In this document: positions 11,601 through 47,323 of the stretch, one piece after another
How the letters are laid out: every line of letters begins with the position of its first letter
How positions within the stretch are numbered: position 1 is the stretch's first letter
Assembly (NCBI GenBank): GCA_032718475.1
Contig: JAUCBJ010001190.1
Location: 1 to 50,939 of the forward strand
From: Nemertoderma westbladi
Taxonomy: Eukaryota; Animalia; Xenacoelomorpha
Direction: 5' to 3'
Length of the DNA: 50,939 bases
Translations under genes and position numbers: made by a program
Notes under the pieces: model-generated
Told to the model about the DNA's origin: nothing
Databases searched by the model: none
The model's input: the letters and a program-made list of their open reading frames with translations, nothing else

Positions 11601-14600
11601 CAAAGTTTGTTCAAGTTATGATTGCTCAAGCAGCTTTCAAGAGTTTGCCAAACCAAATGGTAACTTTGTTCTCTGAGAAAAGAGCTTTCGAATGAGCCCA
11701 AAACGAACTCCATACGACCACTAGAACTGGAGATTATACAATTTGAAGATCTCCGATTACCGATAAGTCTATTCCGTGTATTCCCACAATGACCGCAGAG
11801 TCGCTTATTCAAGTCCCGTCTTTATTCCAGAAATTTGAAATTGTCTTATAAACTGATCAGTAGGTCCAGCAATCATAAAAAATTACCTTCTCGATTAAAA
11901 TGGTATGCTCTTTCTCGTGGAGACATCCAATTGGCACCACTGAGCACATAAATTTGCAGAAACTGAGTGCAAACCCCAAACGTCATCGCATTTACCGATA
12001 TCGCGATATATCGGAGCCAGAATCATCTACCCCAGATATCTCGAAAACTAAGAAAGATATGGGAAAACGGTTTCCATATTTAGATTTACCATGAAATTCT
12101 GCATCAGATAGGATATGTTTCAAAAATTCGACTTTTTGGTCAGAAAATGCGCTACAGCAAAAGGGTAGCAAAAGTGTGTAGGCCGAGAAATTGAATTATT
12201 TATAAATAACTCTAAAAATAAAATTTGGAAATTAATCTTGACCCAAGAAAACCAAAATTACAACGTCAAGTTGCTTTTTAAAGAACTCTTTTTGTGTGTA
12301 TATACCGTACTCCTATCGAAGTACCGTAACCAACTCTAAATACAGTCAGATTGAAATAGCTTCTTTCCAATTAATTGATTTGATTTCAGGAAATGTAAAG
12401 TTATTTCAGTGATGACAAAACTGACGTTAAAATATTTTTAGTTTTGTTTTTATAGCTGTTATCTTTTATCGAGTCTCTCAACCTTCTGTTCCCAACTATA
12501 TGTAACTCGTTACGTTTCTAGGCCTTGACTTCCCGCTGTTCAACGTGCAGCCAATCATTGGGTCGCATTCACAGTTGCGTTCATTGCGTTTACTTCGGTT
12601 GCTACCCCCGCAAGCACATACAGAATCACGCCAGGGAAACAGGGCACCATATCTGTTAGTACTGGGCCTCTAGTGCACTACAACTGGCCTATTATAGGGA
12701 GTGATTGTGGGTCGAATATGTCTTCTATTAAAACTTTGTTCGTTATTATTTGATTGTTTTGATTTTGGAATTGTTTTTAAAACATACATCAAAAGGCTGC
12801 CACTTCGTCTACTGGTGATATTCCTGGGCCTCCAATCACGAGGGCCAAGGCTCGATCCCTTTCCGTAGCAGCACTGTTTTGGCACAGTGCTTTAAATGCT
12901 GCAGCCTAGCTTCACCCATTCTTTCATCCTTTACTAGCCGATAAATTATTGGAACCAGGAAAACTTATAAAACAAACCTTCACATAGTTTAATATGTGAG
13001 AACACCCGTTGTGGTGAAAGTAAGCTCGTATAATTATCTGTAGAGTACAGTAATTAATATTCACCCTCGATTAATATAAAATAATTTATAATTGTAGCCG
13101 TTGATTTACGACTTGGGGCTACATATTGCCACCCTTGTGCCGACTATGTTTACAACGTAGACGTCGATAAATTAGCCAAGGACGCTTTCCAACGGAGTTG
13201 GGCTCGATGTGCAGGTATTTGTTATTAGAGAAAATAAATGTTGGTTAATAAATTGAACAATTCTTATTTACGAGTAAAAAGTTCGGTGAACCAGTGAAAC
13301 ACGAAACACCCGGGGGAACCCGAACGCACCTCTCCGGGCTTGTGTTGGGCGAGTAATTAAGGAGTGGAGTCTACTCTCTTGGGAGTTAGTGTGGCATCCC
13401 CGCCCCCTGTCTTATAGGTAACAGCCACGAGAGATGAGCCTACTGATAGTAATGGGGAGGGTTGCATCTAGGGAATAATCATTAGGCCTAATTCCTTCTT
13501 AGTTTCTAAACTGTAACACCCCCTTCCTACAATTCATAGTGACCAACTTTCTTCCAACCAACATGGCTCCAGTCTAATGGCTCCTCAATATATATTATCA
13601 CATTACGATACTTTTTTATTTAATTCTTTGTTGCAGCGCTTTAAATTCATTGTTTGTTACAGCGCTTTTTATTTTATTTTAATTTTATGTTACAGGCGCT
13701 TTTGATATTTGCCCAGACTGGGAACCAACCATCCAGGAACGGCAGTTACTCAATCGCGCTAAAAAGAGACGCAAAATAGTGGATAACTGCACTCTTGGTA
13801 GGATTCCTATAAATAGGTTTCTTAACTTGCAATTTTAACTTTAACTAACAATTTTACAACAATAACTATTTATTACATGGGGAATAAGTATAGGCTTTAT
13901 TTCCCCCGAGCTGTATAAGTTGACAAACGGGCTCAGCGACCAATAATATGTCACTAGGATTATGAGGGAAAAAATGTACTTTTTTTCATGCAATAATTTC
14001 GTTTAAAAGTATTTTTATACGTCATAATTATTGTGCGGCGATTGTAATTCTTATTTGATTGATTTATCGGGGAACTTATTTAAGGTTTCCACTGGAAGCT
14101 ATCAAGCTATGTGTGTAGTAATACTACTACTACTAGGATCGGCATGCTGCATTGCAGCTGCATTTTTAAGAATGCTGTGTCAGCTTGTCGACAAAATTGC
14201 ACCGCCACAACTCCCTATCACCCATTACATTTGCTAGATCATCCGCATCTTTAAGGCCAATGTCCTTTAAGATGCGTCTCAAGAAAGTCATGGGCTGTCC
14301 ACCATGCTTATTCACTCCATGAGGCTGCCAAAGCACAAGATTGTGCACTGGCTGGTCCTCACGGCGAAAGCAATGTCCTGCAAAGCGGAGGCGATTTTGT
14401 TCTAGTGTCAAGCTTGGGGGAACCATTGAGACACCTCCAATGTTATATAGTGTCTGGTTGGAGATGTGTGCATTGTACTTGACACAATGAACTGCCATCC
14501 GCCGAACTGACAAGTGAATGTGCCATCCAGAGATTTGATTATTGATAGTAACAATGTGTTGGCAAGCTGTATTTATCGAGGTGTTTGTTATTATACATTT

Positions 14601-17600
14601 ATTATAGGCTATATAGCTGGCTTTGAATTTAATACTCCATATCTCAAGAACCTGTGGCCTAGTGGTTGTAGTCTCGGCTTCCACCTCGAGGTCCCAGGTT
14701 CGAATCCGACACCACGCTGATGAGACCCAGTAAGGTCGAAACGCGTACGTGGTTTGGAGAGATATGAGATATTAATTTCAAGAAAAATTACGCGATTCCA
14801 AAATTTGTACACTACCCGGTTAAAAAGTACGCATGTGATGGGATTAGTCCTACAAATGCGCCAATAAAAGATAAGTTATTTTCGGTAAAATAAACTTATC
14901 ATTCGAGGTTAAGACCCCTAGATCCCTTCCTATAATAAATGTATCATAACAAACACCTCGAAAAATACAGCTTGCCAAAACCTTGTTACTATCAATAATC
15001 AAAAATCAGGGGCTAATAAAATGGCAGCTGGCTTTGAAATTAATACTCCATATCTCAAGAACCTGTGGCCTAGTGGTTGTTGTCTCGGCTTCCACCTCGA
15101 GGTCCTAGGTTCGAATCCGACACCACGCTGATGAGACCCAGTAAGGTCGAAACGCGTACGTGGTTTGGAGAGATATGAGATATTAATTTCAAGAAAAATT
15201 ACGCGATTCCAAAATTTGTACACTACCCGGTTAAAAAGTACGCATGTGATGGGATTAGTCCTACAATTGCGCCAATAAAAGATAAGTTATTTTCGGTAAA
15301 ATAAACTTATCATTCGAGGTTAAGACCCCTAGAACCCTTCCTATAATAAATCCAGAGATTTGATGTCCTCAGCAGTTAGAGCCCAGCATGGACTCTCATA
15401 GAGGAGTACTGGAACTACTGCTGCTCTAAATAATCGGACCTTACGTTTCCGATTAATTCTCGTTGACTTCCAAATCCTGGAAAGCCTATTCAAGGCTGCC
15501 CATGCCTTTCCCTTACGTATTCGAAGGTCCTCACCTGACTTCCGGATCCATGATCCCAGGTAACAGAAGTCATCCACATGCTCAAGCATACCATCTTTTG
15601 AGCTTATGCTCATCCGATCTGGAGAAGGGTCGTAGTGTAAATGCATTACAGTCTTGTATAGAGCTCCTGTATTTCCTACGAAACAGGATATGGTCTCTCT
15701 GGGACTTGTGACCACTGGGTTCACTATGAGTCATAGCTTTCCAGTTCGCTTCTTGAACTGGGTTCCAGCCGAAAACAATCCATTTCCAGAGATAAAATCC
15801 TGAAGATTGACGGAATTTCGGTTAACACTATTGCTATAGACCCAGGGCGAAGTAGGTGATTGATGCAGACTTGCATTAAAGTCTCCCAGGAATGTTAAGA
15901 ATGCATGCTGATCCACTCCATCAGTAGCTGCTTGTAGATTGTGGTATAAATTTTCCACCTCCTCTACAGGGGCAACACTAGTTGGAGAGTAGCACACAAT
16001 CAGAACCACCTTAGGAAACTTCTTAGCCAGTCTTCCAGAACATGAGAAGTGGCAACGGATGATGCGGTTAGAGATTTGGTCTATTTTGTCCAATGCTGCA
16101 TGTGCATTGCCACTATCATCTGCTGAGGCGAGTGCGAGTCGCCAACCGCCCCCATGTCCTTAATCAGAACCTCATCCGTCTGTCCAGTCTGCATTCGGTG
16201 CTCTTGAACACCCACTGCGCTAAGAGAAAGCTTATCTGCCAAGGCAGTCAGCTCACCTTGTCGCATTGGGGACCCGAGTGTTAGGGTGTTTACTGAGGCT
16301 AGTCTAGTGATTTGCCTCAGATTCACCAATGGCTTTGTTGGTCGGGGTGGAACATGAGAGTAGCCTCCAACTCCAGAATCCCTCTCCCCCTCGCAATCTG
16401 GCTTCGCTGGTGACCCAGTGTTTGGGCCAGAAAGGTCATCAGGAAAGGGACTCAAAGAATTGTTTGCCGCTCTCTCTCCAGTAGGGGGTGAGACAGGCAG
16501 CCGGTCAGGAGTTAACTGACGCCTGTGAGGCCGATTGTGTCCGGTCATTCCACTGGCCTCTAGTGGCTGGACCTGCGCATTACTAATGTAATCCATAGTG
16601 GGGGTTGGGGGGTGCTTTTTTGCCGAGTCAGCTCTCGGGGCAAATACCACACCCTGGTTTGCCATTCCACAGGGTGGGTGTCGCAGTGGAGTCAGATATG
16701 AGGCCCATCACCCATATCTACTCTGGCGCACATAACCCACCATTGGCTGTGCAGCTCATCTGCTGGGTCATGCCCTGTACCCTTTCATCCAGGTGCAGGT
16801 CGCAGTGAAGTGCTCTCAGACTGGACATGAGAACACTCTACTCCTGACCAGCCATTGGTAGATCACTATCTGCCTGGTCAGGCCATATACCCCTGCAGCC
16901 AAGTATATGGGTCCTTAATCCAGGACCAAGGGCGTCCTATTCCCAGAACGAAGGGGGTCCTAGTTAGTAGTTACAGGACCAGATTTGCCCTAGTAAGAGG
17001 GTCTATACATCTACAGGTGGCACCTCCTTTATGCTGCGTGGAGGTGGCAAGTTTTCTTGATCAATGACCTAGAATACCTGACCTGACCTTGTAGTAATAA
17101 CCAAAATGTGATTAAGCAAAATAAATACTACATGTATTTATTTAGCCCTGTGGCATAGCCCATTTAGTGTTACACTAATTTATACTTTTTTTAATTCATA
17201 TTGTTTGACCTTTAAGTAAATAGTTCACCTGTTCTTATATTTAGGGTTACGTGGACTAATTAATTTGGGACAGACTTGTTTTATGAACTGCATTCTACAA
17301 GCGATCGCCCACACACCAGTGCTACGCAACTATTTTCTATCCGATAAACACCATTGCCCGCCCTCTATGCTGTCCCAATGCGTCGCATGCGAACTCTCTG
17401 GTCTATTCCAGCAGGTAAGTCGTACAGCGGGTAATTTGTACAGCGGGTAAGTCGTACAGCGGGTAAGTCGTACAGCGGGTAAGTCGTACAGCGGGTAAGT
17501 CGTACAGCGGGTAAGTCGTACAGCGGGTAAGTCGTACAGCGGGTAAGTTGTACAGCGGGTAAGTCGTACAGCGGGTAAGTCGTACAGCGGGTAAGTCGTA

Positions 17601-20600
17601 CAGCGGGTAAGTCGTACAGCGGGTAAGTCGTACAGCGGGTAAGTCGTACAGCAGGTAAGTCGTACAGCGGGTAAGTCGTACAGCGGGTAAGTCGTACAGC
17701 GGGTAAGTCGTACAGCGGGTAAGTCGTACAGCGGGTAAGTCGTACAGCGGGTAAGTCGTACAGCAGGTAAGTCGTACAGCGGGTAAGTCGTACAGCGGGT
17801 AAGTCGTACAGCAGGTAAGTCGTACAGCGGGTAAGTCGTACAGCGGGTAAGTCGTACAGCGGGTAAGTCGTACAGCGGGTAAGTCGTACAGCGGGTAAGT
17901 CGTACAGCGGGTAAGTCGTACAGCAGGTAAGTCGTACAGCGGGTAAGTCGTACAGCGGGTAAGTCGTACAGCGGGTAAGTCGTACAGCGGGTAAGTTGTA
18001 CAGCGGGTAAGTCGTACAGCGGGTAAGTCGTACAGCGGGTAAGTCGTACAGCGGGTAAGTCGTACAGCGGGTAAGTCGTACAGCGGGTAAGTCGTACAGC
18101 GGGTAAGTCGTACAGCGGGTAAGTCGTCTAGCGGGTAAGTCGTACAGCGGGTAAGTCGTACAGCGGGTAAGTCGTACAGCGGGTAAGTCGTACAGCGGGT
18201 AAGTCGTGCAGCGGGTAAGTCGTACAGCAGGTAAGTTGTACAGCGGGTAAGTCGTACAGCGGGTAAGTCGTACAGCGGGTAAGTCGTACAGCAGGTAAGT
18301 CGTACAGCGGGTAAGTTGTACAGCGGGTAAGTCGTACAGCAGGTAAGTCGTACAGCGGGTAAGTCGTACAGCGGGTAAGTCGTATAGCGGGTAAGTCGTA
18401 CAGCAGGTAAGTCGTACAGCAGGTAAGTCGTACAGCGGGTAAGTCGTACAGCTGGTAAGTCGTACAGCGGGTAAGTCGTACAGCGGGTAAGTCGTACAGC
18501 GGGTAAGTCGTACAGCGGGTAAGTCGTACAGCAGGTAAGTCGTACAGCGGGTAAGTCGTACAGCGGGTAAGTTGTACAGCGGGTAAGTCGTACAGCGGGT
18601 AAGTCGTCTAGCGGGTAAGTCGTACAGCAGGTAAGTTGTACAGCGGGTAAGTCGTACAGCGGGTAAGTCGTACAGCAGGTAAGTCGTACAGCAGGTAAGT
18701 CGTACAGCAGGTAAGTCGTACAGCAGGTAAGTCGTACAGCGGGTAAGTCGTACAGCGGGTAAGTCGTACAGCGGGTAAGTCGTACAGCGGGTAAGTCGTA
18801 CAGCAGGTAAGTCGTACAGCGGGTAAGTCGTACAGCGGGTAAGTCGTACAGCAGGTAAGTCGTACAGCAGGTAAGTCGTACAGCAGGTAAGTCGTACAGC
18901 AGGTAAGTCGTACAGCAGGTAAGTCGTACAGCGGGTAAGTCGTACAGCGGGTAAGTCGTACAGCGGGTAAGTCGTACAGCGGGTAAGTCGTACAGCAGGT
19001 AAGTCGTACAGCGGGTAAGTCGTACAGCGGGTAAGTCGTACAGCGGGTAAGTCGTACAGCGGGTAAGTCGTACAGCGGGTAAGTCGTACAGCGGGTAAGT
19101 CGTACAGCAGGTAAGTCGTACAGCAGGTAAGTCGTACAGCAGGTAAGTCGTACAGCAGGTAAGTCGTACAGCAGGTAAGTCGTACAGCGGGTAAGTCGTA
19201 CAGCGGGTAAGTCGTACAGCGGGTAAGTCGTACAGCGGGTAAGTCGTACAGCAGGTAAGTCGTACAGCAGGTAAGTCGTACAGCGGGTAAGTCGTACAGC
19301 TGGTAAGTCGTACAGCAGGTAAGTCGTACAGCGGGTAAGTCGTACAGCAGGTAAGTCGTACAGCAGGTAAGTCGTACAGCAGGTAAGTCGTACAGCGGGT
19401 AAGTCGTACAGCTGGTAAGTCGTACAGCAGGTAAGTCGTACAGCGGGTAAGTCGTACAGCAGGTAAGTCGTACAGCGGGTAAGTCGTACAGCAGGTAAGT
19501 CGTACAGCAGGTAAGTCGTCTAGCGGGTAAGTTGTACAGCGGGTAAGTTGTACAGCGGGTAAGACGTACAGCAGGTAAGTCGTACAGCAGGTAAGTCGTA
19601 CAGCAGGTAAGTCGTACAGCGGGTAAGTCGTACAGCAGGTAAGTCGTACAGCGGGTAAGTCGTACAGCGGGTATAAGTCGTACAGCGGGTAAGTCGTACA
19701 GCGGGTATAAGTCGTACAGCGGGTAAGTCGTACAGCGGGTAAGTCGGGGTAAGTCGTACAGCGGGTAAGTCGTACAGCAGGTAAGTCGTACAGCAGGTAA
19801 GTCGTACAGCAGGTAAGTCGTACAGCAGGTAAGTCGTACAGCGGGTAAGTCGTACAGCGGGTAAGTCGTACAGCAGGTAAGTCGTACAGCAGGTAAGTCG
19901 TACAGCGGGTAAGTCGTACAGCGGGTAAGTCGTACAGCAGGTAAGTCGTACAGCGGGTAAGTCGTACAGCAGGTAAGTCGTACAGCGGGTAAGTCGTACA
20001 GCGGGTATAAGTCGTACAGCGGGTAAGTCGTACAGCGGGTAAGTCGGGGTAAGTCGTACAGCGGGTAAGTCGTACAGCAGGTAAGTCGTACAGCAGGTAA
20101 GTCGTACAGCGGGTAAGTCGTACAGCGGGTAAGTCGTACAGCAGGTAAGTCGTACAGCGGGTAAGTTGTACAGCGGGTAAGTCGTACAGCGGGTAAGTCG
20201 TACAGCGGGTAAGTCGTACAGCGGGTAAGTCGTACAGCGGGTAAGTCGTACAGCGGGTAAGTCGTCTAGCGGGTAAGTCGTACAGCGGGTAAGTCGTCTA
20301 GCGGGTAAGTCGTACAGCGGGTAAGTCGTACAGCGGGTAAGTCGTACAGCGGGTAAGTCGTCTAGCGGGTAAGTCGTACAGCGGGTAAGTCGTCTAGCGG
20401 GTAAGTCGGGGTCAGTCGTACAGCGGGTAAGTCGTATAGCGGGTAAGTCGTACAGCGGGTAAGTCGTACAGCGGGTAAGTTGTACAGCGGGTAAGTCGTA
20501 CAGCAGGTAAGTCGTACAGCGGGTAAGTCGTACAGCTGGTAAGTCGTACAGCGGGTAAGTCGTACAGCAGGTAAGTCGTACAGCGGGTAAGTCGTACAGC

Positions 20601-23600
20601 AGGTAAGTCGTACAGCGGGTAAGTCGTACAGCAGGTAAGTCGTACAGCGGGTAAGTCGTACAGCAGGTAAGTCGTACAGCGGGTAAGTCGTACAGCAGGT
20701 AAGTCGTACAGCGGGTAAGTCGTACAGCGGGTAAGTCGTACAGCGGGTAAGTCGTACAGCGGGTAAGTCGTACAGCGGGTAAGTTGTACAGCAGGTAAGT
20801 CGTACAGCGGGTAAGTTGTACAGCGGGTAAGTCGTACAGCAGGTAAGTCGTACAGCGGGTAAGTCGTACAGCGGGTAAGTCGTACAGCGGGTAAGTCGTC
20901 TAGCGGGTAAGTCGTACAGCGGGTAAGTCGTCTAGCGGGTAAGTCGTACAGCGGGTAAGTCGTACAGCTGGTAAGTCGTACAGCGGGTAAGTCGTACAGC
21001 GGGTAAGTCGTACAGCGGGTAAGTCGTACAGCGGGTAAGTTGTACAGCAGGTAAGTCGTACAGCGGGTAAGTTGTACAGCAGGTAAGTCGTACAGCGGGT
21101 AAGTTGTACAGCAGGTAAGTCGTACAGCAGGTAAGTCGTACAGCGGGTAAGTCGTACAGCGGGTAAGTCGTACAGCGGGTAAGTCGTCTAGCGGGTAAGT
21201 CGTACAGCGGGTAAGTCGTACAGCGGGTAAGTCGTACAGCGGGTAAGTCGTACAGCGGGTAAGTTGTACAGCAGGTAAGTCGTACAGCGGGTAAGTCGTA
21301 CAGCGGGTAAGTCGTACAGCGGGTAAGTCGTCTAGCGGGTAAGTCGTACAGCGGGTAAGTCGTCTAGCGGGTAAGTCGTACAGCGGGTAAGTCGTACAGC
21401 TGGTAAGTCGTACAGCGGGTAAGTCGTACAGCGGGTAAGTCGTACAGCGGGTAAGTCGTACAGCGGGTAAATTGTACAGCAGGTAAGTCGTACAGCGGGT
21501 AAGTTGTACAGCGGGTAAGTCGTACATCAGGTAAGTCGTACAGCGGGTAAGTCGTACAGCGGGTAAGTCGTACAGCGGGTAAGTCGTACAGCGGGTAAGT
21601 CGTACAGCGGGTAAGTCGTACGCAGGTAAGTCGTACAGCGGGTAAGTCGTACAGCGGGTAAGTCGTACAGCGGGTAAGTCGTACAGCGGGTAAGTCGTAC
21701 AGCGGGTAAGTCGTACAGCGGGTAAGTCGTACAGCGGGTAAGTCGTACAGCAGGTAAGTCGTACAGCAGGTAAGTCGTACAGCAGGTAAGTCGTACAGCG
21801 GGTAAGTCGTACAGCGGGTAAGTTGTACAGCAGGTAAGTCGTACAGCGGGTAAGTCGTACAGCGGGTAAGTCGTACAGCTGCAGGTAAGTCGTACAGCGG
21901 GTAAGTTGTACAGCAGGTAAGTCGTACAGCGGGTAAGTCGTACAGCAGGTAAGTTGTACAGCGGGTAAGTCGTACAGCGGGTAAGTCGTACAGCGGGTAA
22001 GTTGTACAGCGGGTAAGTCGTACAGCGGGTAAGTCGTACAGCGGGTAAGTCGTACAGCGGGTAAGTCGTACAGCGGGTAAGTCGTACAGCGGGTAAGTCG
22101 TACAGCGGGTAAGTCGTACAGCGGGTAAGTTGTACAGCGGGTAAGTCGTACAGCGGGTAAGTCGTACAGCGGGTAAGTCGTACAGCGGGTAAGTCGTACA
22201 GCGGGTAAGTCGTACAGCGGGTAAGTCGTACAGCGGGTAAGTCGTACAGCGGGTAAGTCGTACAGCGGGTAAGTCGTACAGCGGGTAAGTCGTACAGCGG
22301 GTAAGTCGTACAGCGGGTAAGTCGTACAGCAGGTAAGTCGTACAGCGGGTAAGTCGTACAGCGGGTAAGTCGTACAGCGGGTAAGTCGTACAGCAGGTAA
22401 GTCGTACAGCGGGTAAGTCGTACAGCGGGTAAGTCGTACAGCGGGTAAGTCGTACAGCGGGTAAGTCGTACAGCGGGTAAGTCGTACAGCGGGTAAGTTG
22501 TACAGCAGGGAAGTCGTACAGCGGGTAAGTCGTACAGCGGGTAAGTTGTACAGCAGGTAAGTCGTACAGCGGGTAAGTCGTACAGCGGGTAAGTCGTACA
22601 GCGGGTAAGTCGTACAGCGGGTAAGTCGTACAGCGGGTAAGTCGTACAGCGGGTAAGTCGTATACAGCGGGTAAGTCGTACAGCGGGTAAGTCGTACAGC
22701 GGGTAAGTCGTACAGCGGGTAAGTCGTACAGCGGGTAAGTCGTACAGCGGGTAAGTCGTACAGCGGGTAAGTCGTACAGCGGGTAAGTCGTACAGCGGGT
22801 AAGTCGTACAGCGGGTAAGTCGTACAGCGGGTAAGTCGTACAGCGGGTAAGTCGTACAGCGGGTAAGTCGTACAGCGGGTAAGTCGTACAGCAGGTAAGT
22901 CGTACAGCGGGTAAGTCGTACAGCGGGTAAGTCGTACAGCGGGTAAGTCGTACAGCGGGTAAGTCGTACAGCGGGTAAGTTGTACAGCAGGTAAGTCGTA
23001 CAGCGGGTAAGTCGTATAGCGGGTAAGTCGTACAGCGGGTAAGTCGTACAGCGGGTAAGTCGTACAGCGGGTAAGTCGTACAGCGGGTAAGTCGTACAGC
23101 GGGTAAGTCGTACAGCGGGTAAGTCGTACAGCGGGTAAGTCGTACAGCGGGTAAGTCGTACAGCGGGTAAGTCGTACAGCGGGTAAGTTGTACAGCGGGT
23201 AAGTCGTACAGTGGGTAAGTCGTACAGCGGGTAAGTCGTGCAGCGGGTAAGTCGTACAGCGGGTAAGTCGTACAGCGGGTAAGTCGTACAGCTGCAGGTA
23301 AGTCGTACAGCGGGTAAGTTGTACAGCAGGTAAGTCGTACAGCGGGTAAGTCGTACAGCAGGTAAGTTGTACAGCGGGTAAGTCGTCTAGCGGGTAAGTC
23401 GTCTAGCGGGTAAGTCGTACAGCGGGTAAGTCGTACAGCGGGTAAGTCGTACAGCGGGTAAGTCGTACAGCGGGTAAGTCGTACAGCGGGTAAGTCGTAC
23501 AGCGGGTAAGTCGTACAGCGGGTAAGTTGTACAGCGGGTAAGTCGTACAGTGGGTAAGTCGTACAGCGGGTAAGTCGTGCAGCGGGTAAGTCGTACAGCG

Positions 23601-28385: not shown

Positions 28386-28781
28386 GTAAGTAAATTATAT
28401 TATAAAAATCATAAAATATACTTTATTTAGTTTGTAATAAGTAACTTATTATTATAACTTTCATTGGGCATAGCTTTGCAAAGTCGGCTATGACGTCCAG
28501 GTGGGATCGAACTGGTCACCTCCAGTTTTTCTTTCTCACTTTTTAATCAGCTTTGAAATTACCACTACCATAAAACATTAATTTACCGTAGAGTAAATTT
28601 ACATTTACTTTACTTTATTTAAAATATGATGATAATAATATAAAGACTTTACCTTGTTGAGCATTTACGATTAAATAAGTATTCATACATACAACACATA
28701 TTCACTAAATTGTACAATAACTACGACAACCGTAACCTTTACAGTAGTCCAAGTCCAGGGTGTAACACGGTTTTGATATCC

Positions 28782-31700
28782 CTGGTAGTAGATATATCTA
28801 TCTTACAGGAGCAGTAAAACAGCTTCCTCACTGGTAGTAATATCTTCCACAAACAGCTTCCTCACTGGCAGTAGATATATCTATCTTACAGGAGCAGTAA
28901 AACAGCTTCCTCACTGGTAGTAGATATATCTATCTTACAGGAGCATTAAAACAGCTTCCTCACTGGTAGTAGATATTTCTTCCTCAAACAGCTTCCTCAC
29001 TGGTAGTAGATATATCTATCTTACAGGAGCAGTAAAAACAGCTTCCTCACTGGTAGTAGATATATCTATCTTACAGGAGCAGTAAAACAGCTTTCCTCAC
29101 TGGTAGTAGATATATCTTCCACAAACAGCTTCCTCACTGGTAGTAGATATATCTATCTTACAGGAGCATTAAAACAGCTTCCTCACTGGTAGTAGATATA
29201 TCTATCTTACAGGAGCAGTAAAAACAGCTTCCTCACTGGTAGTAGATATATCTATCTTACAGGAGCAGTAAAACAGCTTCCTCACTGGTAGTAGATATAT
29301 CTTCCACAAACAGCTTCCTCACTGGTAGTAGATATATCTATCTTACAGGAGCATTAAAACAGCTTCCTCACTGGTAGTAGATATATCTATCTTACAGGAG
29401 CAGTAAAACAGCTTCCTCACTGGTAGTAGATATATCTATCTTACAGGAGCATTAAAACAGCTTCCTCACTGGTAGTAGATATATCTATCTTACAGGAGCA
29501 GTAAAACAGCTTCCTCACTGGTAGTAGATATATCTATCTTACAGGAGCAGTAAAACAGCTTCCTCACTGGTAGTAGATATATCTTCCACAAACAGCTTCC
29601 TCACTGGTTGTAGATATATCTATCTTACAGGAGCAGTAAAAACAGCTTCCTCACTGGTAGTAGATATATCTATCTTACAGGAGCAGTAAAAACAGCTTCC
29701 TCACTGGTAGTAGATATATCTTCCACAAACAGCTTCCTCACTGGTAGTAGATATATCTTTCACAAACAGCTTCCTCACTGGTAGTAGATATATCTATCTT
29801 ACAGGAGCAGTAAAACAGCTTCCTCACTGGTAGTAGATATATCTATCTTACAGGAGCAGTAAAAACAGCTTCCTCACTGGTAGTAGATATATCTTCCACA
29901 AACAGCTTCCTCACTGGTAGTAGATATATCTATCTTACAGGAGCAGTAAAAACAGCTTCCTCACTGGTAGTAGATATATCTTCCACAAACAGCTTCCTCA
30001 CTGGTAGTAGATATATCTATCTTACAGGAGCATTAAAACAGCTTCCTCACTGGTAGTAGATATATCTATCTTACAGGAGCATTAAAACAGCTTTCCTCAC
30101 TGGTAGTAGATATATCTTCCACAAACAGCTTCCTCGCTGGTAGTAGATATATCTATCTTACAGGAGCAGTAAAACAGCTTCCTCACTGGTAGTAGATATA
30201 TATATCTTACAGGAGCAGTAAAAACAGCTTCCTCACTGGTAGTAGATATATCTATCTTACAGGAGCATTAAAACAGCTTCCTCACTGGTAGTAGATATAT
30301 CTATCTTACAGGAGCATTAAAACAGCTTCCTCACTGGTAGTAGATATATCTATCTTACAGGAGCAGTAAAACAGCTTCCTCACTGGTAGTAAATATATCT
30401 ATCTTACAGGAGCAGTAAAACAGCTTCCTCTTCCTCACTGGTAGTAGATATATCTATCTTACAGGAGCATTAAAACAGCTTCCTCACTGGTAGTAGATAT
30501 ATCTATCTTACAGGAGCAGTAAAACAGCTTCCTCACTGGTAGTAAATATATCTATCTTACAGGAGCAGTAAAACAGCTTCCTCTTCCTCACTGGTAGTAG
30601 ATATATCTATCTTACAGGAGCATTAAAACAGCTTCCTCACTGGTAGTAGATATATCTATCTTACAGGAGCAGTAAAAACAGCTTCCTCACTGGTAGTAGA
30701 TATATCTTCCACAAACAGCTTCCTCACTGGTAGTAGATATATCTATCTTACAGGAGCATTAAAACAGCTTCCTCACTGGTAGTAGATATATCTATCTTAC
30801 AGGAGCATTAAAACAGCTTTCCTCACTGGTAGTAGATATATCTTCCACAAACAGCTTCCTCGCTGGTAGTAGATATATCTATCTTACAGGAGCAGTAAAA
30901 CAGCTTCCTCACTGGTAGTAGATATATATATCTTACAGGAGCAGTAAAAACAGCTTCCTCACTGGTAGTAGATATATCTATCTTACAGGAGCATTAAAAC
31001 AGCTTCCTCACTGGTAGTAGATATATCTATCTTACAGGAGCATTAAAACAGCTTCCTCACTGGTAGTAGATATATCTATCTTACAGGAGCAGTAAAACAG
31101 CTTCCTCACTGGTAGTAAATATATCTATCTTACAGGAGCAGTAAAACAGCTTCCTCTTCCTCACTGGTAGTAGATATATCTATCTTACAGGAGCATTAAA
31201 ACAGCTTCCTCACTGGTAGTAGATATATCTATCTTACAGGAGCAGTAAAACAGCTTCCTCACTGGTAGTAGATATATCTTCCACAAACAGCTTCCTCACT
31301 GGTAGTAGATATATCTATCTTACAGGAGCATTAAAACAGCTTCCTCACTGGTAGTAGATATATCTATCTTACAGGAGCAGTAAAACAGCTTCCTCACTGA
31401 TAGTAGATATATCTTCCACAAACAGCTTCCTCACTGGTAGTAGATATATCTATCTTACAGGAGCATTAAAACAGCTTCCTCACTGGTAGTAGATATATCT
31501 ATCTTACAGGAGCAGTAAAACAGCTTCCTCACTGGTAGTAGATATATCTTCCACAAACAGCTTCCTCACTGGTAGTAGATATATCTTCCACAAACAGCTT
31601 CCTCACTGGTAGTAGATATATCTTCCACAAACAGCTTCCTCACTGGTAGTAGATATATCTATCTTACAGGAGCAGTAAAACAGCTTCCTCACTGGTAGTA

Positions 31701-34396
31701 GATATATCTATCTTACAGGAGCAGTAAAAACAGCTTCCTCACTGGTAGTAGATATATCTATCTTACAGGAGCATTAAAACAGCTTCCTCACTGGTAGTAG
31801 ATATATCTATCTTACAGGAGCATTAAAACAGCTTTCCTCACTGGTAGTAGATATATCTTCCACAAACAGCTTCCTCACTGGTAGTAGATATATCTATCTT
31901 ACAGGAGCAGTAAAAACAGCTTCCTCACTGGTAGTAGATATATCTATCTTACAGGAGCATTAAAACAGCTTCCTCACTGGTAGTAGATATATCTATCTTG
32001 CAGGAGCAGTAAAACAGCTTCCTCGCTGGTAGTAGATATATCTATCTTACAGGAGCAGTAAAACAGCTTCCTCACTGGTAGTAGATATATCTATCTTACA
32101 GGAGCATTAAAACAGCTTCCTCACTGGTAGTAGATATATCTATCTTACAGGAGCATTAAAACAGCTTCCTCACTGGTAGTAGATATATCTATCTTACAGG
32201 AGCAGTAAAACAGCTTCCTCACTGGTAGTAAATATATCTATCTTACAGGAGCAGTAAAACAGCTTCCTCACTGGTAGTAGATATTTCTTCCTCAAACAGC
32301 TTCCTCACTGGTAGTAGATATATCTATCTTACAGGAGCATTAAAACAGCTTTCCTCACTGGTAGTAGATATATCTTCCACAAACAGCTTCCTCACTGGTA
32401 GTAGATATATCTTCCACAAACAGCTTCCTCACTGGTAGTAGATATATCTATCTTACAGGAGCAGTAAAACAGCTTCCTCACTGGTAGTAGATATTTCTTC
32501 CTCAAACAGCTTCCTCACTGGTAGTAGATATATCTATCTTACAGGAGCAGTAAAAACAGCTTCCTCACTGGTAGTAGATATATCTATCTTACAGGAGCAG
32601 TAAAACAGCTTCCTCACTGGTAGTAGATATTTCTTCCTCAAACAGCTTCCTCACTGGTAGTAGATATATCTATCTTACAGGAGCAGTAAAAACAGCTTCC
32701 TCACTGGTAGTAGATATATCTATCTTACAGGAGCAGTAAAACAGCTTCCTCACTGGTAGTAGATATTTCTTCCTCAAACAGCTTCCTCACTGGTAGTAGA
32801 TATATCTATCTTACAGGAGCAGTAAAAACAGCTTCCTCACTGGTAGTAGATATATCTATCTTACAGGAGCAGTAAAACAGCTTCCTCACTGGTAGTAGAT
32901 ATTTCTTCCTCAAACAGCTTCCTCACTGGTAGTAGATATATCTATCTTACAGGAGCAGTAAAACAGCTTCCTCACTGGTAGTAGATATTTCTTCCTCAAA
33001 CAGCTTCCTCACTGGTAGTAGATATATCTATCTTACAGGAGCATTAAAACAACTTCCTCACTGGTAGTAGATATATCTATCTTACAGGAGCAGTAAAACA
33101 GCTTCCTCACTGGTAGTAGATATATCTTCCACAAACAGCTTCCTCACTGGTAGTAGATATATCTTCCTCAAACAGCTTCCTCACTGGTAGTAGATATATC
33201 TATCTTACAGGAGCAGTAAAACAGCTTCCTCACTGGTAGTAGATATATCTATCTTACAGGAGCAGTAAAACAGCTTTCCTCACTGGTAGTAGATATTTCT
33301 TCCTCAAACAGCTTCCTCACTGGTAGTAGATATATCTATCTTACAGGAGCATTAAAACAGCTTTCCTCACTGGTAGTAGATATATCTTCCACAAACAGCT
33401 TCCTCGCTGGTAGTAGATATATCTTCCACAAACAGCTTCCTCACTGGTAGTAGATATATCTTCCACAAACAGCTTCCTCGCTGGTAGTAGATATATCTAT
33501 CTTACAGGAGCATTAAAACAGCTTTCCTCACTGGTAGTAGATATATCTTCCACAAACAGCTTCCTCACTGGTAGTAGATATATCTATCTTACAGGAGCAG
33601 TAAAAACAGCTTCCTCACTGGTAGTAGATATATCTATCTTACAGGAGCAGTAAAACAGCTTCCTCACTGGTAGTAGATATATCTATCTTACAGGAGCAGT
33701 AAAACAGCTTTCCTCACTGGTAGTAGATATTTCTTCCTCAAACAGCTTCCTCACTGGTAGTAGATATATCTATCTTACAGGAGCATTAAAACAGCTTTCC
33801 TCACTGGTAGTAGATATATCTTCCACAAACAGCTTCCTCGCTGGTAGTAGATATATCTTCCACAAACAGCTTCCTCACTGGTAGTAGATATATCTTCCAC
33901 AAACAGCTTCCTCGCTGGTAGTAGATATATCTATCTTACAGGAGCATTAAAACAGCTTTCCTCACTGGTAGTAGATATATCTTCCACAAACAGCTTCCTC
34001 ACTGGTAGTAGATATATCTATCTTACAGGAGCAGTAAAAACAGCTTCCTCACTGGTAGTAGATATATCTATCTTACAGGAGCAGTAAAACAGCTTCCTCA
34101 CTGGTAGTAGATATATCTTCCTCAAACAGCTTTCCTCACTGGTAGTAGATATATCTTCCACAAACAGCTTCCTCACTGGTAGTAGATATATCTATCTTAC
34201 AGGAGCAGTAAAAACAGCTTCCTCACTGGTAGTAGATATATCTATCTTACAGGAGCAGTAAAACAGCTTTCCTCACTGGTAGTAGATATATCTTCCACAA
34301 ACAGCTTCCTCACTGGTAGTAGATATATCTTCCACAAACAGCTTCCTCACTGGTAGTAGATATATCTTCCACAAACAGCTTCCTCGCTGGTAGTAG
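28782..34396. repeat. Two-unit satellite (49-bp and 37-bp monomers interleaved), roughly 125 units
   Basis: CTGGTAGTAGATATATCTATCTTACAGGAGCAGTAAAACAGCTTCCTCA (49) and CTGGTAGTAGATATATCTTCCACAAACAGCTTCCTCA (37). Confidence 0.98.
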
Positions 34397-34506
34397 CTAC
34401 ATCTTCTTCCACATTTTCCTTTCCTTATGTATTTCGTTCGCAGGACCTTCATAATTCTCCAATAATCTCCGCCCAGTTTGCTATAAAGCTGCTTTACGCT
34501 CTCAGT

Positions 34507-34558
34507 TCAGTTTAATAAAGAGTCTCTCTCGCCACGATCAGATTTGGTTGGTTGTTTC
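34507..34558 (-). CDS. Ig-TM gene exon 5 (cytoplasmic tail, stop)
   Basis: TTTCAG|G-KQPTKSDRGERDSLLN*; homologous to 44214-44265. Confidence 0.8.
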
Positions 34559-37500
34559 CTGAAATATTGTTATATTTTGATGTATTAGTGGCCTAAATTA
34601 TACCGCATAAGGTTGAAACTTGAAACAAGCTTAATAATATTTGGGTAAAAACAAATTTAGAGACAATGAAATTTATATACAGACAATACCTTCAATAAGG
34701 GACTATCCTTAAATTGCGTAACGCGTGAGAGGGAGGGGGGGGGGGGGGGGGGGGGTGGTCAAAAATCGTCTAAAATACCGTCACTAAATTTAAGGATGAC
34801 TCCTAATGACTCCTGTTTGACTCACTTTCTCTTATAAATAGCGCAGATAATGGCAAGAATGAGTATTATCCAAGATGCTACCGCTATCCCAACCATAATT
34901 CCCCAATGACTTTCCAATTCTGCCTCTGTGCCCGCTACTACCTGGTCTACAACACCGTTGTCACTCAGTGCGTTATTGAGTGTGTCTTCTAGATCATTCT
35001 TCATCTCCGAGATTTTGTTTTCTTTCACGTTGATTTTTGAGACTACCCAGAGCTGACTGGTCTTCCTCTTTTGAACAATGCATTCCCATTGTCCGATATA
35101 TGTTGCTTCCATGGCAGGAATGGAATACGACATATCCTGGGGGAATATTATTTATTATTATATATACTTCTGGTAGCTTCACAACAACTTGTTGTGGTTT
35201 TTCTACTGCAGACATAGACTATGTGTGTTAGCGGATCCAGTCCACTATGCGCTCCCATTACAAAGTGGAGCGGGTGCCAATTTACCAATATTGGCCGTAA
35301 GAAACATCAGGCTAGTAAGTGAGTTAAACTCACTTACAGCAAACCCAAAACCCAATATAGCTCGGCAGGGGGATAAGCGTGATATTGCAGCCAATGAGCA
35401 GGGTGTATCAACTCTAAGGCTACCATATTGGTACGATTATCAATTCCCAGTTGTCGGTCAGCTGACGGTCAGTCGGAAGGCCGAACCCTTCATAGGGCGG
35501 CAGTTAATTTAACCCACAGAGGGTGATACGTTTTGTATAATCGTATCATATAGGCTACAGTACAACATCGGCTACCGGTCTAGTATCTTCAGTCAGTGCA
35601 ATCGACAATTTCATTATATTGACGCCACAGTTATTAACTATATCCGCTTTTCTGTACCTGACCCCCGACAACAATCTGTGTATTGCTAAGTTAATAAGAA
35701 AACTAACCCCAGCATCAACCTATAACATCCGCCGCGCCAACCTCCCTCCCGTCACAATGTGGGTGGCCTGGTCTGGTCACTCATTCAGTGGTCACTCTTC
35801 TCACATAGACCAGACAGGTATTCAGTAGTTATTCCACCAAAGAGTGGCCGTTGTATTACTTGTATTATACTCACAGATTTTTCAGTCTTTTTATCTCCTA
35901 TAAGTTTAGGTCGCTTTATTTTGACCCCATCCTGGACCCAGTAGACTTCAGTGTCTGCCAAGTAATGAACCAATGATTGACTTGGGCATTTTAATATCAA
36001 CGGCTGACCAACATCAAGTGATACCGTGACAGATACTGCAAAATAATTTCATTAAATTTGGTTTAGCTTATCAAAAACAAATGTAATGTAATTAACAAAA
36101 GATTGGCAAGTGAATAATGAATTGTTCTTGTCTCTCCTATTTCACTCTATTTTAATTAATCCGTTAGGTTATGACACTTAAAACCCTGCCGTTAGTAAAT
36201 AGTAAAGAAAAAGATTAAGTGTCATGGGACTTTAAGAAAATCCATGTTTTTTTTTATTATACTCAACAAACCATATTAACGATACCGACACTATTCAATA
36301 CAAATTAATAGCAATATTAATTTGACTACAATAATTATTTAAATAACATTTAAATTAGTTATACTTAACTTATCTTAGGAAACATACCAGTGATCAAGTA
36401 GCAATCCAAAGTTTCTGTTTTGTTCACCGCCCAGTTAATGTGATATACGTATATGCCATTGTTTTTTTCTTGAGCTTTTTCTATCAATAGTTTGTTTATC
36501 CAATGGTAATCGCCTTTGAATTTTAAAAAAGAAACTATTTGCTGTTATGAACTATTTGCAATGTAACTTTATTGCAAGAGTTATATTTTCGATTTGTTCG
36601 ACATAATATATCGACAAATATTCGATACAAACCAAATAGGTTCAGCGAAATTCCAGGAAGATCTTACTGTACAATTAATATTTTTCTTTATAATGTAATA
36701 TATATTCTAGAACATCTCTAATTCGATCCTAATTCTTCACTATACTGCACTCTATGATTTGCTTGAACAGCCAATTACAATAATTACCAACTTCATACAA
36801 TTATGCCAACTCCAAATCATCGACGTCCAACATTTGAACTGAAGTTTCATAATATAATTAATACATTGGTAATTTACGGTTCGACTATTTAGAGCGGCAT
36901 TAGAACAGGTACTCCTATATAGGTGTCCATGCTGGGCTCTAACTGCTGAGGACACCAAATCTCTGGATAGTAACAATGTGTTGGCAAGCTGTATTTTTCG
37001 AGGTGTTTGTTATTATACATTTTATTATAAGAAGGGATCTAGGGGTCTTAACCTCGAATGATAAGTTTATTTTACCGAAAATAACTTATCTTTTATTGGC
37101 GCAATTGTAGGACTAATCCCATCACATGCGTACTTTTTAACCGGGTAGTGTACAAATTTAGGAATCGCGTAATTTTTCTTGAAATTAATATCTCATATCT
37201 CTCCAAACCACGTACGCGTTTCGACCTTACTGGGTCTCATCAGCGTGGTGTCGGATTCGAACCTGGGACCTCGAGGCGGAAGCCGAGACTACAACCACTA
37301 GGCCACAGGTTCTTGAGATATGGAGTATTAATTTCAAAGACAGCTGCCATTTTATTAGCCCCTGATTTTTGATTATTGATAGTAACAATGTGTTGGCAAG
37401 CTGTATTTTTCGAGGTGTTTGTTATTATACATTTTATTATAAGAAGGGATCTAGGGGTCTTAACCTCGAATGATAAGTTTATTTTACCGAAAATAACTTA

Positions 37501-40500
37501 TCTTTTATTGGCGCAATTGTAGGACTAATCCCATCACATGCGTACTTTTTAACCGGGTAGTGTACAAATTTAGGAATCGCGTAATTTTTCTTGAAATTAA
37601 TATCTCATATCTCTCCAAACCACGTACGCGTTTCGACCTTACTGGGTCTCATCAGCGTGGTGTCGGATTCGAACCTGGGACCTCGAGGCGGAAGCCGAGA
37701 CTACAACCACTAGGCCACAGGTTCTTGAGATATGGAGTATTAATTTCAAAGACAGCTGCCATTTTATTAGCCCCTGATTTTTGATTATTGATAGTAACAA
37801 TGTGTTGGCAAGCTGTATTTTTCGAGGTGTTTGTTATTATACATTTTATTATCCTAGACCCCTTAACCGTTAAGACCGTTAAGACCCCTAGATCCCTTCT
37901 TATAATAAAATCTCTGGATGGCACATTCACAAGAATGCTACGCCGGGTTCATTGTGACAAGTACAATGCACACATCTCCAACGAGTATATAACATTGGAG
38001 GTGTCTCATTGGTACCCCCAAGCTTGACACTAGAACAAAATCGCCTCCGCTTTGCAGGACATTGCTTTCGCCGTGAGGACCAGCCAGTGCATAATCTTGT
38101 ACTTTGGCAGCCTCATGGAGTGAATAAGCATGGTGGACAGCCCATTTCGCACACTTCGCCGGGAGGCCTGGCGGCGTGAGGCCGTATCGCAGCGCGAGGT
38201 TGTCGCGGAACACCTCTGGGGCCAGGTCGGTGTTATCGACGACGTAAGGCTGCGCCGACAGCCACCCACACGTCTTGTGGGACACCGTACGGTCGACAGT
38301 TCGGCGCCTTTCGGCAGGGACGGAATGGACTGCGGACTCCATAGCTGCCTTATAGGCAGCGTCCTGGGCGACGCGACTCGCAGCCAATGCGGAGACAGGA
38401 CGGACTGAGTGGTCGACGACGATTTGGTTGGGAAATAGCTCAGTTATGGGCATTGGAATGTTGCATGTATTTGCTTCCGCTGCAGGCCATTTTTTATATT
38501 TAATAAATACACAAATATTTTTACATATTTGGAATCCTTGCATGGCCAGCTTTCCATTGGTACCAACAAACAGCTATAAGGTTGAAGAATAACTGCGGTG
38601 TAACTGGTGCAAAATCGACGGAGACACTTTTTTCAAACGCTTGTAGCTAAAGGATGAAAGCGAAAATAAAAATTCTGGCTCACCCAGCAAGGAGGAGGTA
38701 TAGGTGCAAAACTATCTCTGTTTCAAATTTCATGCAATCGAATTTGTAGTCGAATTTGGGGGGGGGGGGGGGTGGCACTGAATTACGACACTATATTCCA
38801 GAACATGGTTGCCAACTTCTATAGAATTTATATCAATTAAACAGATCTCCTATTGGTTGATTATTCGCTATTTGCTGCGTTATATTGACGAAAATGTGTT
38901 TTTTTAATGTGTTTTTTTGTGATTTTATTTTTATTTTTTATTTTTTACATAATGATTAGCTAGTAGAGTTGTAATTAAAATGATTAGCTCATTAGATTTT
39001 TAATTAAAATATGTTACTGAGTCACTTTTCAGTTAATAGTTTGCTTTTATCAGGTCAATTAGATCAAGAAACGGTGTCTCGACATGAAGTCCACGCCATC
39101 TGAACTCCCCTAAGTGATTTTCAATGTTTGCCACAGCACTTTTATTTCGATGCATAATTGCGAATTTAGCATGGCGCCACATCCCTTCTATACGTTGGGT
39201 ATTAGCCCCGGTTGCTGGGTTCACAAAACGCCCCTTTCCCTTGGTAGCATGCTTCACTTTGAGGTGCGTGTAGCCCCCATTTCCATCGCTGCACTGCCAC
39301 TGATCCCTCCTGTTCATGATACCAACTCGCCGACCGCAATATGCTGACCATTCATCTGACATAATTGTCGTTCCACCTTTGATATGGCGTTCAACAATCG
39401 GTCGTAGTGTTTCTGTGTCACGTCGCTGCACATGGAACATTCGCATGTCGACTGATTTATCAGCTCTTTTATGGACTAGCCCAAAAATCCATGGCCCATC
39501 AACAACTGCTCGTCCATAATTCCTTGCAGCGCTGATGTAATCTCCTTTCAGCTTCCTCCCGCGCTTATATTTCCTCCGACCCCAAAACAGTGATTCATCG
39601 ATTTGAATCGATTCTCCTGGGCCGCCCATTGGGTCTGCCTCCTTCATGTCCTTGTACATTAATTCACGTTCAAAGTTGGCCCAATCAATCATCGTGTGAT
39701 CATTGATGTAACCAACTATTCCACCAAGTAGACGGTGAGTTACCTTCATAGTTGTTTCTATGATGAAGAAGAACATCAGCCAGAGAATTTGCTTTACCAA
39801 TAGATTTGAGTTGTTTGCAAACCATGTTTCAACACGTGCAGACCGGCGATGCCTCTTTGGAGAACTGCAGAGCCACATCAGACGTGGAAAACAGTGTCTA
39901 GGTTACAATCTTGTTCAATTTGTGCGTCATCTTTCGGAAGTAGACCAACTCGTTGCATGAATTTTATAGCATTACCTGCATCTCCAATCTGAGAAACCAA
40001 CTCTTCCACGTTCGGATCATGCCGATTAGGTCTAGGATAGTGGTGTCTTATATCACCGCCACCACCTGCCATTTTATAGCTAGTCGTATAAATATAAAAT
40101 AAACGCACTTAAGAATGTGTAAAACAAAATAATACAAATTAAAAATGTTCCAGAAAAACCAACGTTATTAAATCACAAAAAAAAACACATTTTCGTCACC
40201 CGGGCCACAGTAGTACCTGGCACGTTATGCTAACCAAAACAAACATTAAACAATGTGTGCGACAATCCCCCTGCCTGTGATAACTCAGGAGTTGAAGTGC
40301 TAATTCGATGTGTTTACGGTAAGGTCAAGTAATTAACAACCCCAACCCATCTTATAATTAAACTTGAAATTGGCGCTATTGATGTATTATTGTATTGATT
40401 GACCAGAAATTAACTTACTTTTTTTGGGTCCCTTTTCATGACTATTTATTGATGATATATTTCTGCCATTATGCGTCCAGTAAGCATATTTGTATGACAT

Positions 40501-47085: not shown

Positions 47086-47323
47086 ACAACGTAGTTTTAT
47101 TCCAAAATTGTAACATTACGAAACGGCTACTGAAGAAAATCTGAGTATGAAACTTTTGATATTAAAAAAAGAGCATAATTGTTGTTGGAATTCATCATGT
47201 AAGATTAGCTCACCCCCCCCCCCCCCCCCCCCCCCCCAAACAGTAGTTAATGTAATTACGGTTTGCTGTTGCCTTCACCAGTTCATTTTGCTAATTGGTC
47301 TAGCTAGTATTTACATTTATTTA

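Follow-up and report, generated by a model that had tools for sequence, protein, structure and literature searches.

Two copies of one protein-less hammerhead retrozyme family were found inserted at the same 12-bp site of a LINE in contig JAUCBJ010001190.1 of Nemertoderma westbladi (the window, that is the whole analysed stretch of 50,939 nucleotides). These are independent insertions, likely made by the enzyme of a Penelope-like element (PLE) that would recognise a near-palindromic motif carried by the LINE. The LINE itself is likely a motif-driven hotspot and no dedicated target.

The preliminary description had taken the arrays for two different retrozymes, but their units align as a single 411/412-bp family with 402 matches, 9 mismatches and 1 gap. 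The units are in tandem with one type I hammerhead motif each, which is the arrangement of a retrozyme, and the hammerhead core is intact in all four units; self-cleavage is predicted. An Rfam scan at the gathering score gave no match, and the HH9 model aligned with the motif at 26.6 bits (E 3.1e-4), under its gathering score of 52. Stem III is absent from the predicted fold of the monomer and hence cleavage may need a dimer; cofolding of two hammerheads did not give the canonical double hammerhead. Every unit also has matches to the A and B box patterns, a predicted Pol III promoter, while ARAGORN detected no full tRNA gene at this tRNA-like head. Against an AC-rich loop of the PLE type, the helix needed to close it is no more stable in folding than shuffled sequence (z 0.6). 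No ORF of at least 120 aa is present on the sense strand of the units, and the layout is without LTR, PBS or PPT (the last two judged by layout alone), with a 12-bp target site duplication (TSD). A tRNA-headed SINE with the tail of a partner LINE was considered and rejected, as the A and B boxes are present but the unit has at most 7 nt in common with the 3' end of the host LINE and carries no (TAG)n tail. The hammerhead pattern had no match in metagenome or viral contigs. The pattern combining B box and hammerhead core matched six phage loci, none of which resembles the retrozyme unit, and a sigma-70 promoter scan was set aside as irrelevant for a eukaryote repeat.

Each array runs antisense to its LINE, as first described (array 1 on the + strand and its LINE on the -, array 2 and its LINE the reverse), and both are flanked by the duplicated 12-mer ATCCAGAGATTT. 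This sequence has five exact matches in the window, at 7313, 14525 and 15350 (+) and at 36957 and 37908 (-), all inside copies of one LINE. Four of them flank the arrays (14525/15350 and 36957/37908), and the fifth is the empty site already noticed in another LINE copy. When up to two mismatches were allowed, 11 matches were found against 3.6 expected, a number reached in 0 of 100 shuffles. The different junctions and the few nucleotides of microhomology reported earlier were also recovered: array 1 ends in ...CCTATAATAA and array 2 in ...CATTGTTACT, the inverted 5' arms measure 72 and 30 nt, and the homologies to the target are AT and AAA for array 1 and ATC and AAAT for array 2, giving 2-4 nt of target-RNA homology at four of four junctions. 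The free circular permutations first envisaged gave way to two preferred end sites, A and B, which lie about 50-60 nt apart, are used crosswise by the two arrays, and correspond to the known PLE 'tail' with its two RT start sites (PMC11167929).

Table 1 Features of the LINE copies and retrozyme arrays in the window. Promoter boxes, hammerheads, RT start sites and cDNA arms are predictions from pattern, fold or layout.
Feature	Position	Strand	Remarks
LINE copy 1	6932..7510	-	5'-truncated; target site empty
Empty target site, LINE copy 1	7313-7324		codons K-S-L-D, late part of ORF2
Candidate 10-bp TSD of LINE copy 2	14114-14123 / 17090-17099
LINE copy 2, host of array 1	14124..17089	-	5' end present; internal deletion at 15619; (TAG)n tail
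TSD left copy, array 1	14525..14536	+
Inverted 5' arm, array 1	14537..14608	-	72 nt; the 'tail', putatively a short cDNA that runs back from B to slightly beyond A
Palindromic seam between inverted and direct arms, array 1	14609..14615
Direct arm, array 1	14616..15349	+	1.8 units of 411 bp, ending at site A
tRNA-like head	14655..14707	+	Pol III A box 14655, B box 14697; again at 15066/15108; pattern match
Type I hammerhead motif	14711..14753	+	cut predicted 3' of 14747; stem III palindromic; second copy at 15122-15164
Strong hairpin	14870..14900	+	contains the only T4 run of the unit; folding z -4.6
AC-rich stretch	14930..15006	+	68% A+C; putative RT start sites A ~14935-14944, B ~14990-15003
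TSD right copy, array 1	15350..15361	+
LINE copy 3, host of array 2	36872..38145	+	~340-bp fragment, both ends cut, without 3' tail
TSD, long-arm end, array 2	36957..36968	-
Direct arm, array 2	36969..37852	-	2.1 identical 412-bp units, ending at site B
Hammerhead motifs, array 2	37619-37661 and 37207-37249	-
Patchwork seam between arms, array 2	37853..37877		short templated pieces
Inverted 5' arm, array 2	37878..37907	+	putative 30-nt cDNA begun at site A
TSD, inverted-arm end, array 2	37908..37919	-

The retrozyme family and the LINE are both abundant in four sequencing runs from three studies, and on this ground both repeats are considered real. The LINE, which we take to be of the RTE type from its LDG.YTRMLR motif, has relatives at 41-43% identity in which PF00078 is present, with PF14529/PF03372 added in two that are full-length; copy 2 itself gave weak matches to PF14529 and DUF6451. 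Judged via the domains of these relatives, it has the APE endonuclease and RT of an RTE-clade LINE. The AT^GG half of the target falls in Asp-Gly codons that are largely kept in 12 distant relative proteins (D in 9, G in 11), whereas the other half, in T-K-S codons, is poorly kept (T in 0, K in 5 and S in 3). Relatives of the LINE were not found in metagenome contigs, nor did the target-site pattern match in prokaryote genomes.

The host LINEs of the two arrays differ at 26 of 312 sites and the retrozyme units at 9 of 411 (p 1.7e-4). When the most diverged parts were left out, the hosts still differed at 13 of 248 sites (p 0.043 against the units). In addition, each inverted arm bears the alleles of its own array at site A, and the array 2 units are identical (0 differences in 376) although LINE copy 3 is a dead fragment. 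As the hosts are more diverged than the arrays, the two insertions are, on sequence comparison, independent events at the same nucleotide site. This agrees with the earlier proposal of independent, sequence-specific integrations from a multimeric or circular RNA, each long copy (1.8 and 2.1 units) spanning two hammerheads. It is quite improbable that both forms go back to one older insertion, first multiplied together with an active LINE (by its retrotransposition, by duplication or by gene conversion) and rearranged afterwards. Such an origin would account for the ends of array 2 being roughly the reverse complement of those of array 1, with A and B swapped, and 10 alignment columns do join the two filled LINEs against the empty copy; however, 17 and 19 columns instead pair each filled LINE with the empty copy, LINE copy 3 has no LINE 3' tail, and all junctions have their own homology to the adjoining target end, which an inversion would not produce. 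Also in its favour, the joint between LINE and inverted tail (14480>14540) has a depth of 293 (X1), 204 (X2) and 416 (X3), about ten times single-copy, and some LINE-retrozyme chimera is therefore multi-copy.

The layout of the arrays, with a partial tandem, an inverted 5'-truncated arm and a one-sided tail whose ends fall at two adjacent RT start sites, is by analogy the published PLE signature, which consists of an inverted pLTR, a one-sided tail, an 8-10-bp TSD and a palindromic seam (PMC3846280; PMC8557442). In the PAc element both strands are nicked and extended, and RT starts from two neighbouring positions of an AC-rich loop; its priming is reported as non-homologous to the cut DNA, contrary to the retrozyme junctions (PMC11167929). 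An autonomous PLE was not detected in the window, nor was an element with RT and GIY-YIG among the 10 window ORFs scanned. In the mechanism that we propose, Pol III read-through would give a multimeric RNA that may be cut and circularised by its hammerheads. Two nicks, one per strand and 12 bp apart, would be made at T^GG in approximately CC[AT-N6-ATTT]GG by a PLE protein that is probably dimeric. At site A or B of the RNA, each nicked 3' end would pair over 2-4 nt and prime cDNA. One cDNA would cover about two units while the other would stop early, and both would be end-joined head to head. The crosswise junctions would arise because either strand can take either site.

Twin priming likewise yields inverted 5' pieces, and the machinery of the LINE itself might have mobilised the retrozyme RNA in this way, favouring its own DNA. 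LINEs have been proposed as possible retrozyme partners alongside PLEs in the discussion of one account (PMC7229834). This reading is very improbable given the unit's at most 7 nt in common with the LINE 3' end, its missing (TAG)n tail and the start of both arms at the internal sites A and B, which is a PLE trait (PMC11167929). Guidance of the RNA to the site through its own base pairing with the target would fit the homology at every junction, but is hardly credible, since the longest word common to the unit (either strand) and the target with 30 bp on each side is 7 nt, and 7 nt or more was obtained in 1,809 of 2,000 shuffles.

Flanks and ends of other copies were taken from contigs of runs X1 and X2, which come from two studies, are of the same species and have insertions in common. 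The table of loose ends counts contigs, and identical LINE junctions are under-counted in it because they collapse into one. Unit ends concentrate at sites A and B: of the 12 loose-end rows listed, with 344 others outside the listing, 8 fall at 14935-14944 and 14999. Minority alleles that the window carries at 14945 and 15000 may have drawn the ends at 14944 and 14999 there. Loose ends also occur at 15619, the deletion point of LINE copy 2. The best-supported ends in both runs have mixed flanks, with an agreement of 0.42-0.52 and medians of up to 255 nt, the maximum length. Two rows at 14935 that resemble unit variants were left out of the motif count, and four 'before' rows (1-3 contigs) were also unused. 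The motif is based on a few consensus lines of 5-17 contigs each. The consensus flank of 10 long contigs ending at 14940 matched the LINE context at 7 of 7 places in positions 7-13 and at 7 of 23 elsewhere, and in one row ATTTGGT was in register with the LINE second-nick context. A run of at least 7 with at most 14 total matches occurred in 0.07% of random sets, in at most 0.6% of sets with 1-2 LINE flanks, and in 31-93% under a motif model fitted post hoc. All 5 rows with unit end AT have G at position 11 or 12, and overall G is in register in 5 of 6 rows, the sixth (X2, 14937) being without GG in register; a G at 11 or 12 turns up in 17-21% of trials with a random row. For X1 alone, G occupied 4 of 6 cells, compared with 6 of 84 (p 0.001). 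Non-LINE flanks thus seem to share the second-nick context of the LINE, and on this basis the target is likely near-palindromic, about the motif given above, of which the abundant LINE would offer thousands of copies.

The preliminary description had raised a possible LINE-targeting parasite. In a strict form of this reading, the mobilising enzyme would be tuned to the LINE site, which would offer it many safe places of insertion, and the copies outside the LINE would be off-target spill. Both window arrays occupy the LINE site, the Asp-Gly half of which is conserved, and the summed contig depth of the left junction, 1,868 in X1 and 3,230 in X2, exceeds that of one copy (about 20-30). Dedicated targeting is unlikely all the same: the flanks in the 42 (X1) and 40 (X2) contigs of the eight top rows are mixed and mostly long, apparently sharing the motif rather than the LINE, the T-K-S half of the site is not kept by relatives, and the junction depth is about 0.5-1.2% of the neighbouring tail depth, uncorrected. 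The same orientation in two of two arrays is a coin-toss outcome half the time. The insertions may still be strongly biased towards the LINE. Precedents are the crocodilian SINEU and Tx1-Mar, Tx1-8_Crp and Tx1-9_AMi, non-autonomous retroelements that prefer another repeat (PMC4494074), and the spike-moss PLE-X, a site-specific PLE in 28S rDNA (PMC8557442); those are Tx1-driven or rDNA-specific, whereas the retrozyme has a LINE as its host, is likely driven by a PLE and has many insertions elsewhere. To a similarly small degree we entertain a retrozyme living on two retroelements, in which an enzyme of Penelope type, adapted to the Asp-Gly codons conserved in the RTE LINE, would insert a large share antisense into it, where the hammerhead cannot cut LINE RNA, and the LINE would carry some copies further, as the multi-copy LINE-tail joint might suggest.

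Under the preferred reading of PLE-made insertions at a motif, the closest systems include the metazoan non-LTR retrozymes. The portions available of two accounts (PMC7229834; Li, Clavereau and Pollet, bioRxiv 10.64898/2026.07.22.740005) describe short, AT-rich, ORF-less units in tandem, each bearing a type I hammerhead, with a TSD of more than 4 bp and a proposed dependence on PLEs, as here. Unit sizes in this group are about 170-400 nt, up to 972. In the present case a tRNA-like head stands right before the hammerhead, both putative RT start sites are resolved, and there seems to be a target motif with a LINE hotspot, of which those portions hold no such description. The endonuclease-bearing PLEs Pen2a of Adineta (PMC3846280), Naiad/Penelope (PMC8557442) and PAc of Anolis (PMC11167929) share the partial tandem, the inverted 5'-truncated arm, the single-end tail, the palindromic seam, the use of both strands and a pair of RT start sites within AC-rich sequence. 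Unlike them, the retrozyme has no ORF, a 12-bp TSD, microhomology at all four junctions, a tail of 50-60 nt (theirs is described as 30-40 nt) and a symmetric motif containing G/C, where theirs is ATT, AT-rich DNA or (TA)n. The SINE-like Sm-alpha and Sj-alpha repeats of schistosomes, likened by description only, also have a Pol III promoter followed by a hammerhead and tandems of at least two; the available part of that source (PMC6765202) mentions neither ends of PLE type nor a target preference.

The arrays bear on the origin of the inverted arm and one-sided tail of Penelope-type insertions and on the mobiliser of animal retrozymes. A shared site in two LINEs can arise from motif preference alone. 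The use of the same site twice with the start sites swapped is a natural experiment, and fits both nicked strands priming on the RNA through 2-4 nt of pairing. A defined 12-bp symmetric target, if true, would provide a substrate for in vitro work and would point to a PLE endonuclease more specific than those described.

Five exact matches to the 12-mer ATCCAGAGATTT were found in the window, two flanking each retrozyme array and one standing unfilled (Table). All five occupy one position of a single LINE family, presumably RTE, at which the 12-mer encodes K-S-L-D close to the end of ORF2. A reverse transcriptase (RT) is present in the sequence relatives of this LINE stretch, accompanied in the two longest by an APE endonuclease. 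Thus, as the preliminary description had stated, the same 12-bp site is filled by both arrays, each antisense to the LINE, while a third LINE copy has the site empty. Since the empty site reads CC-ATCCAGAGATTT-GG, each of the two strands would be nicked at T^GG.

Features of the window (14480/14540 joint from the sequencing runs)
Feature	Position	Strand	Observation
Unfilled 12-mer, LINE copy 1	7313	+	
12-mers flanking array 1	14525, 15350	+	
12-mers flanking array 2	36957, 37908	-	
Array 1	14537-15349		inverted arm 72 nt, palindromic seam, 1.8 direct units; long arm: start site A, homology AT; short arm: start site B, homology AAA
Array 2	36969-37907		inverted arm 30 nt, patchwork seam, 2.1 identical units; long arm: start site B, homology ATC; short arm: start site A, homology AAAT
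Site A	~14935-14944		preferred RT start, AC-rich stretch
Site B	~14990-15003		preferred RT start, AC-rich stretch
LINE copy 2	14124-17089		5' end and part of endonuclease kept; internal deletion at 15619
LINE fragment	10915-11010		continuation past 15619 found in most reads
Replaced patch, LINE copy 2	14493-14512		20 nt beside target site, repeats TGCCATCC of site; possibly a repair scar
LINE joined to inverted tail	14480/14540		~55 bp off target site; ~10x single-copy depth, X1-X3
Adjoining LINE copy 3	38146-38573		no Pfam match
Second LINE	44773-47161	-	RT frame 628 aa, RVT_1, E 2.8e-36
ISXO2-like transposase frame	39033-39902	-	PF12762, E 1e-9
Exon-like ORF	25426-25827	+	ubiquitin hydrolase family UCH, E 4.7e-12
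Phage locus L005 (own coordinates, outside the window)	1501-1531	-	tRNA-like sequence, then directly hammerhead-like core with GAAAC
Fold-back elements, MITE-like	765-1047, 11270-11936		96% and 82% self-complementary
Large satellites (16-, 37/49-, 53-bp units)	17409-24996, 28782-34406, 47512-48622, 49486-50939		

The arrays had been described as two different retrozymes; they belong to one family, their units differing by 9 mismatches in 411, and the inverted 5' pieces do differ as described. The unit (411-412 bp) carries, in order, Pol III-type A and B boxes, a predicted hammerhead motif of type I (E 3.1e-4 against Rfam HH9, under the gathering score), a hairpin that is strong on folding (z -4.6) and an AC-rich stretch; ARAGORN detected no full tRNA gene in it. 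Hammerhead stem III is a short palindrome, absent from the predicted monomer fold. Locus L005 is unrelated to the unit. The segment adjoining LINE copy 3 resembles, as we take it, the C-terminus of a CRE-type retroelement. The window is probably in or near a host gene, because of the UCH-matching ORF.

Comparison of the sequences gives good support to the earlier proposal that the two arrays were inserted separately at the same nucleotide position. Between the LINE copies carrying arrays 1 and 2 (hosts 2 and 3), 26 of 312 aligned positions are different, against 9/411 for the units (p 1.7e-4); once the far end, which is diverged, and the replaced patch are excluded, the count is 13/248 (p 0.043). 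LINE-copy columns were divided 10, 17 and 19 over three groupings, the 10 joining the two filled copies, which are therefore not each other's closest pair. The site A alleles of each inverted arm are those of its own array; at 14930, array 2 carries a rare allele (~3% of depth in the runs). Host 3 is a 340-bp LINE fragment without tail and the array 2 units are identical (0/376 differences), so array 2 entered dead DNA.

On a priming reading, the target 3' ends would each be extended into cDNA of the sense RNA. The microhomology of a few nucleotides noted earlier is present at all four junctions, giving 12 matching letters (chance ~0.3^12 by our own arithmetic). The array ends had been read as circular permutations; they do differ, but are not freely permuted, being sites A and B swapped. 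If the homologous letters were RNA-derived, the target-site duplications (TSDs) would shrink to 7 and 5 bp; the simpler reading counts them as target, with 12-bp TSDs at both arrays. At the array 1 left junction (14533), one contig of run X1 has two extra T, possibly a third insertion event in the form expected from GATTT pairing with AAAUC.

Insertions of Penelope-like elements (PLEs) are described as showing partial tandems, an inverted arm, a one-sided tail, 8-10-bp TSDs and palindromic seams (PMC3846280, PMC8557442). For PAc, a PLE of Anolis, the published account describes nicking and extension of both strands, two start sites in an AC-rich loop, a preference for ATT, a dimer in the model and priming without homology (PMC11167929). 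PLE dependence of retrozymes has been proposed (PMC7229834; bioRxiv 2026.07.22.740005), schistosome tandems of Pol III promoter and hammerhead are known (PMC6765202), and SINEU and Tx1 prefer other transposons (PMC4494074). The literature searched contained no account of a LINE serving as a hotspot for retrozymes or PLEs, nor of a symmetric PLE target; subscription journals, Repbase or supplements may hold one.

Contigs of four (X1-X4) among eight listed runs, from three studies, covering both LINE and unit, were compared with the window. Summed contig depth is not copy number; dividing it by single-copy depth (~30, from the long contigs of X1) and then by 31, the maximum overlap that is possible, gave floors, by our estimate, of ~750 units and ~2,500 LINE 3' parts. 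Among the 12 listed rows of contigs leaving one monomer (X1, X2; there are 344 further rows), 8 fall at sites A and B, just behind 14935-14944 and 14999. X1 contributes 42 contigs to these 8 rows and X2 contributes 40; their agreement is 0.42-0.52 and their flank medians are 27 to at least 255 letters. Their flanks are mixed and other than one LINE site, which makes targeting of the LINE by the retrozyme, the idea of the preliminary description, improbable. LINE junctions are under-counted among these ends because identical junctions collapse into one contig. Depth at 14533, partly from empty sites, was 1,868, 3,230, 2,791 and 380 in X1-X4, or, uncorrected, 0.5-1.2% of the LINE-neighbouring tail depth in X1-X3; under the most generous correction we estimate up to ~1/5 of all arrays at the LINE site. 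The 14480/14540 joint may mark a second insertion site; alternatively, it may come from a chimera that underwent deletion and amplification. In X5, a possible RNA run with another organism label, 0.17 of the words were present.

The LINE sequence fixes the continuation to be expected beyond an array-1-type end at 14940. A consensus built from 10 long X1 flanks at this end matched the LINE context at positions 7-13 (ATTTGGT), spanning the second nick, with just 7/23 matches elsewhere. Runs of at least 7 within a total of no more than 14 matches were obtained in 0.07% of random flank sets, in 0.6%, 0.5% and 0/30,000 with one, two and three LINE flanks mixed in, and in 31-93% of sets under a shared-motif model, which was fitted post hoc. 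G at position 11 or 12 occurs in 5/5 rows with unit end AT (X1 alone p 0.001; p 0.03 leaving out the 14940 row), and row 14937, the sixth, departs from this pattern; the rows are few and include insertions common to the runs, and the window's reference alleles may draw loose ends to 14944 and 14999. Per Mb, 2.3 perfect CCAT-N6-ATTTGG sites are expected, and 45 of a looser symmetric form. With thousands of copies, such a LINE would account for a few percent to about half of the good motif sites, which suffices for two hits in a single window.

The two filled sites are real and non-random, and most likely reflect a PLE-mobilised retrozyme whose enzyme favours a short symmetric motif present in the LINE. 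With start sites A and B swapped at one target, the PLE two-primer insertion model becomes directly testable.
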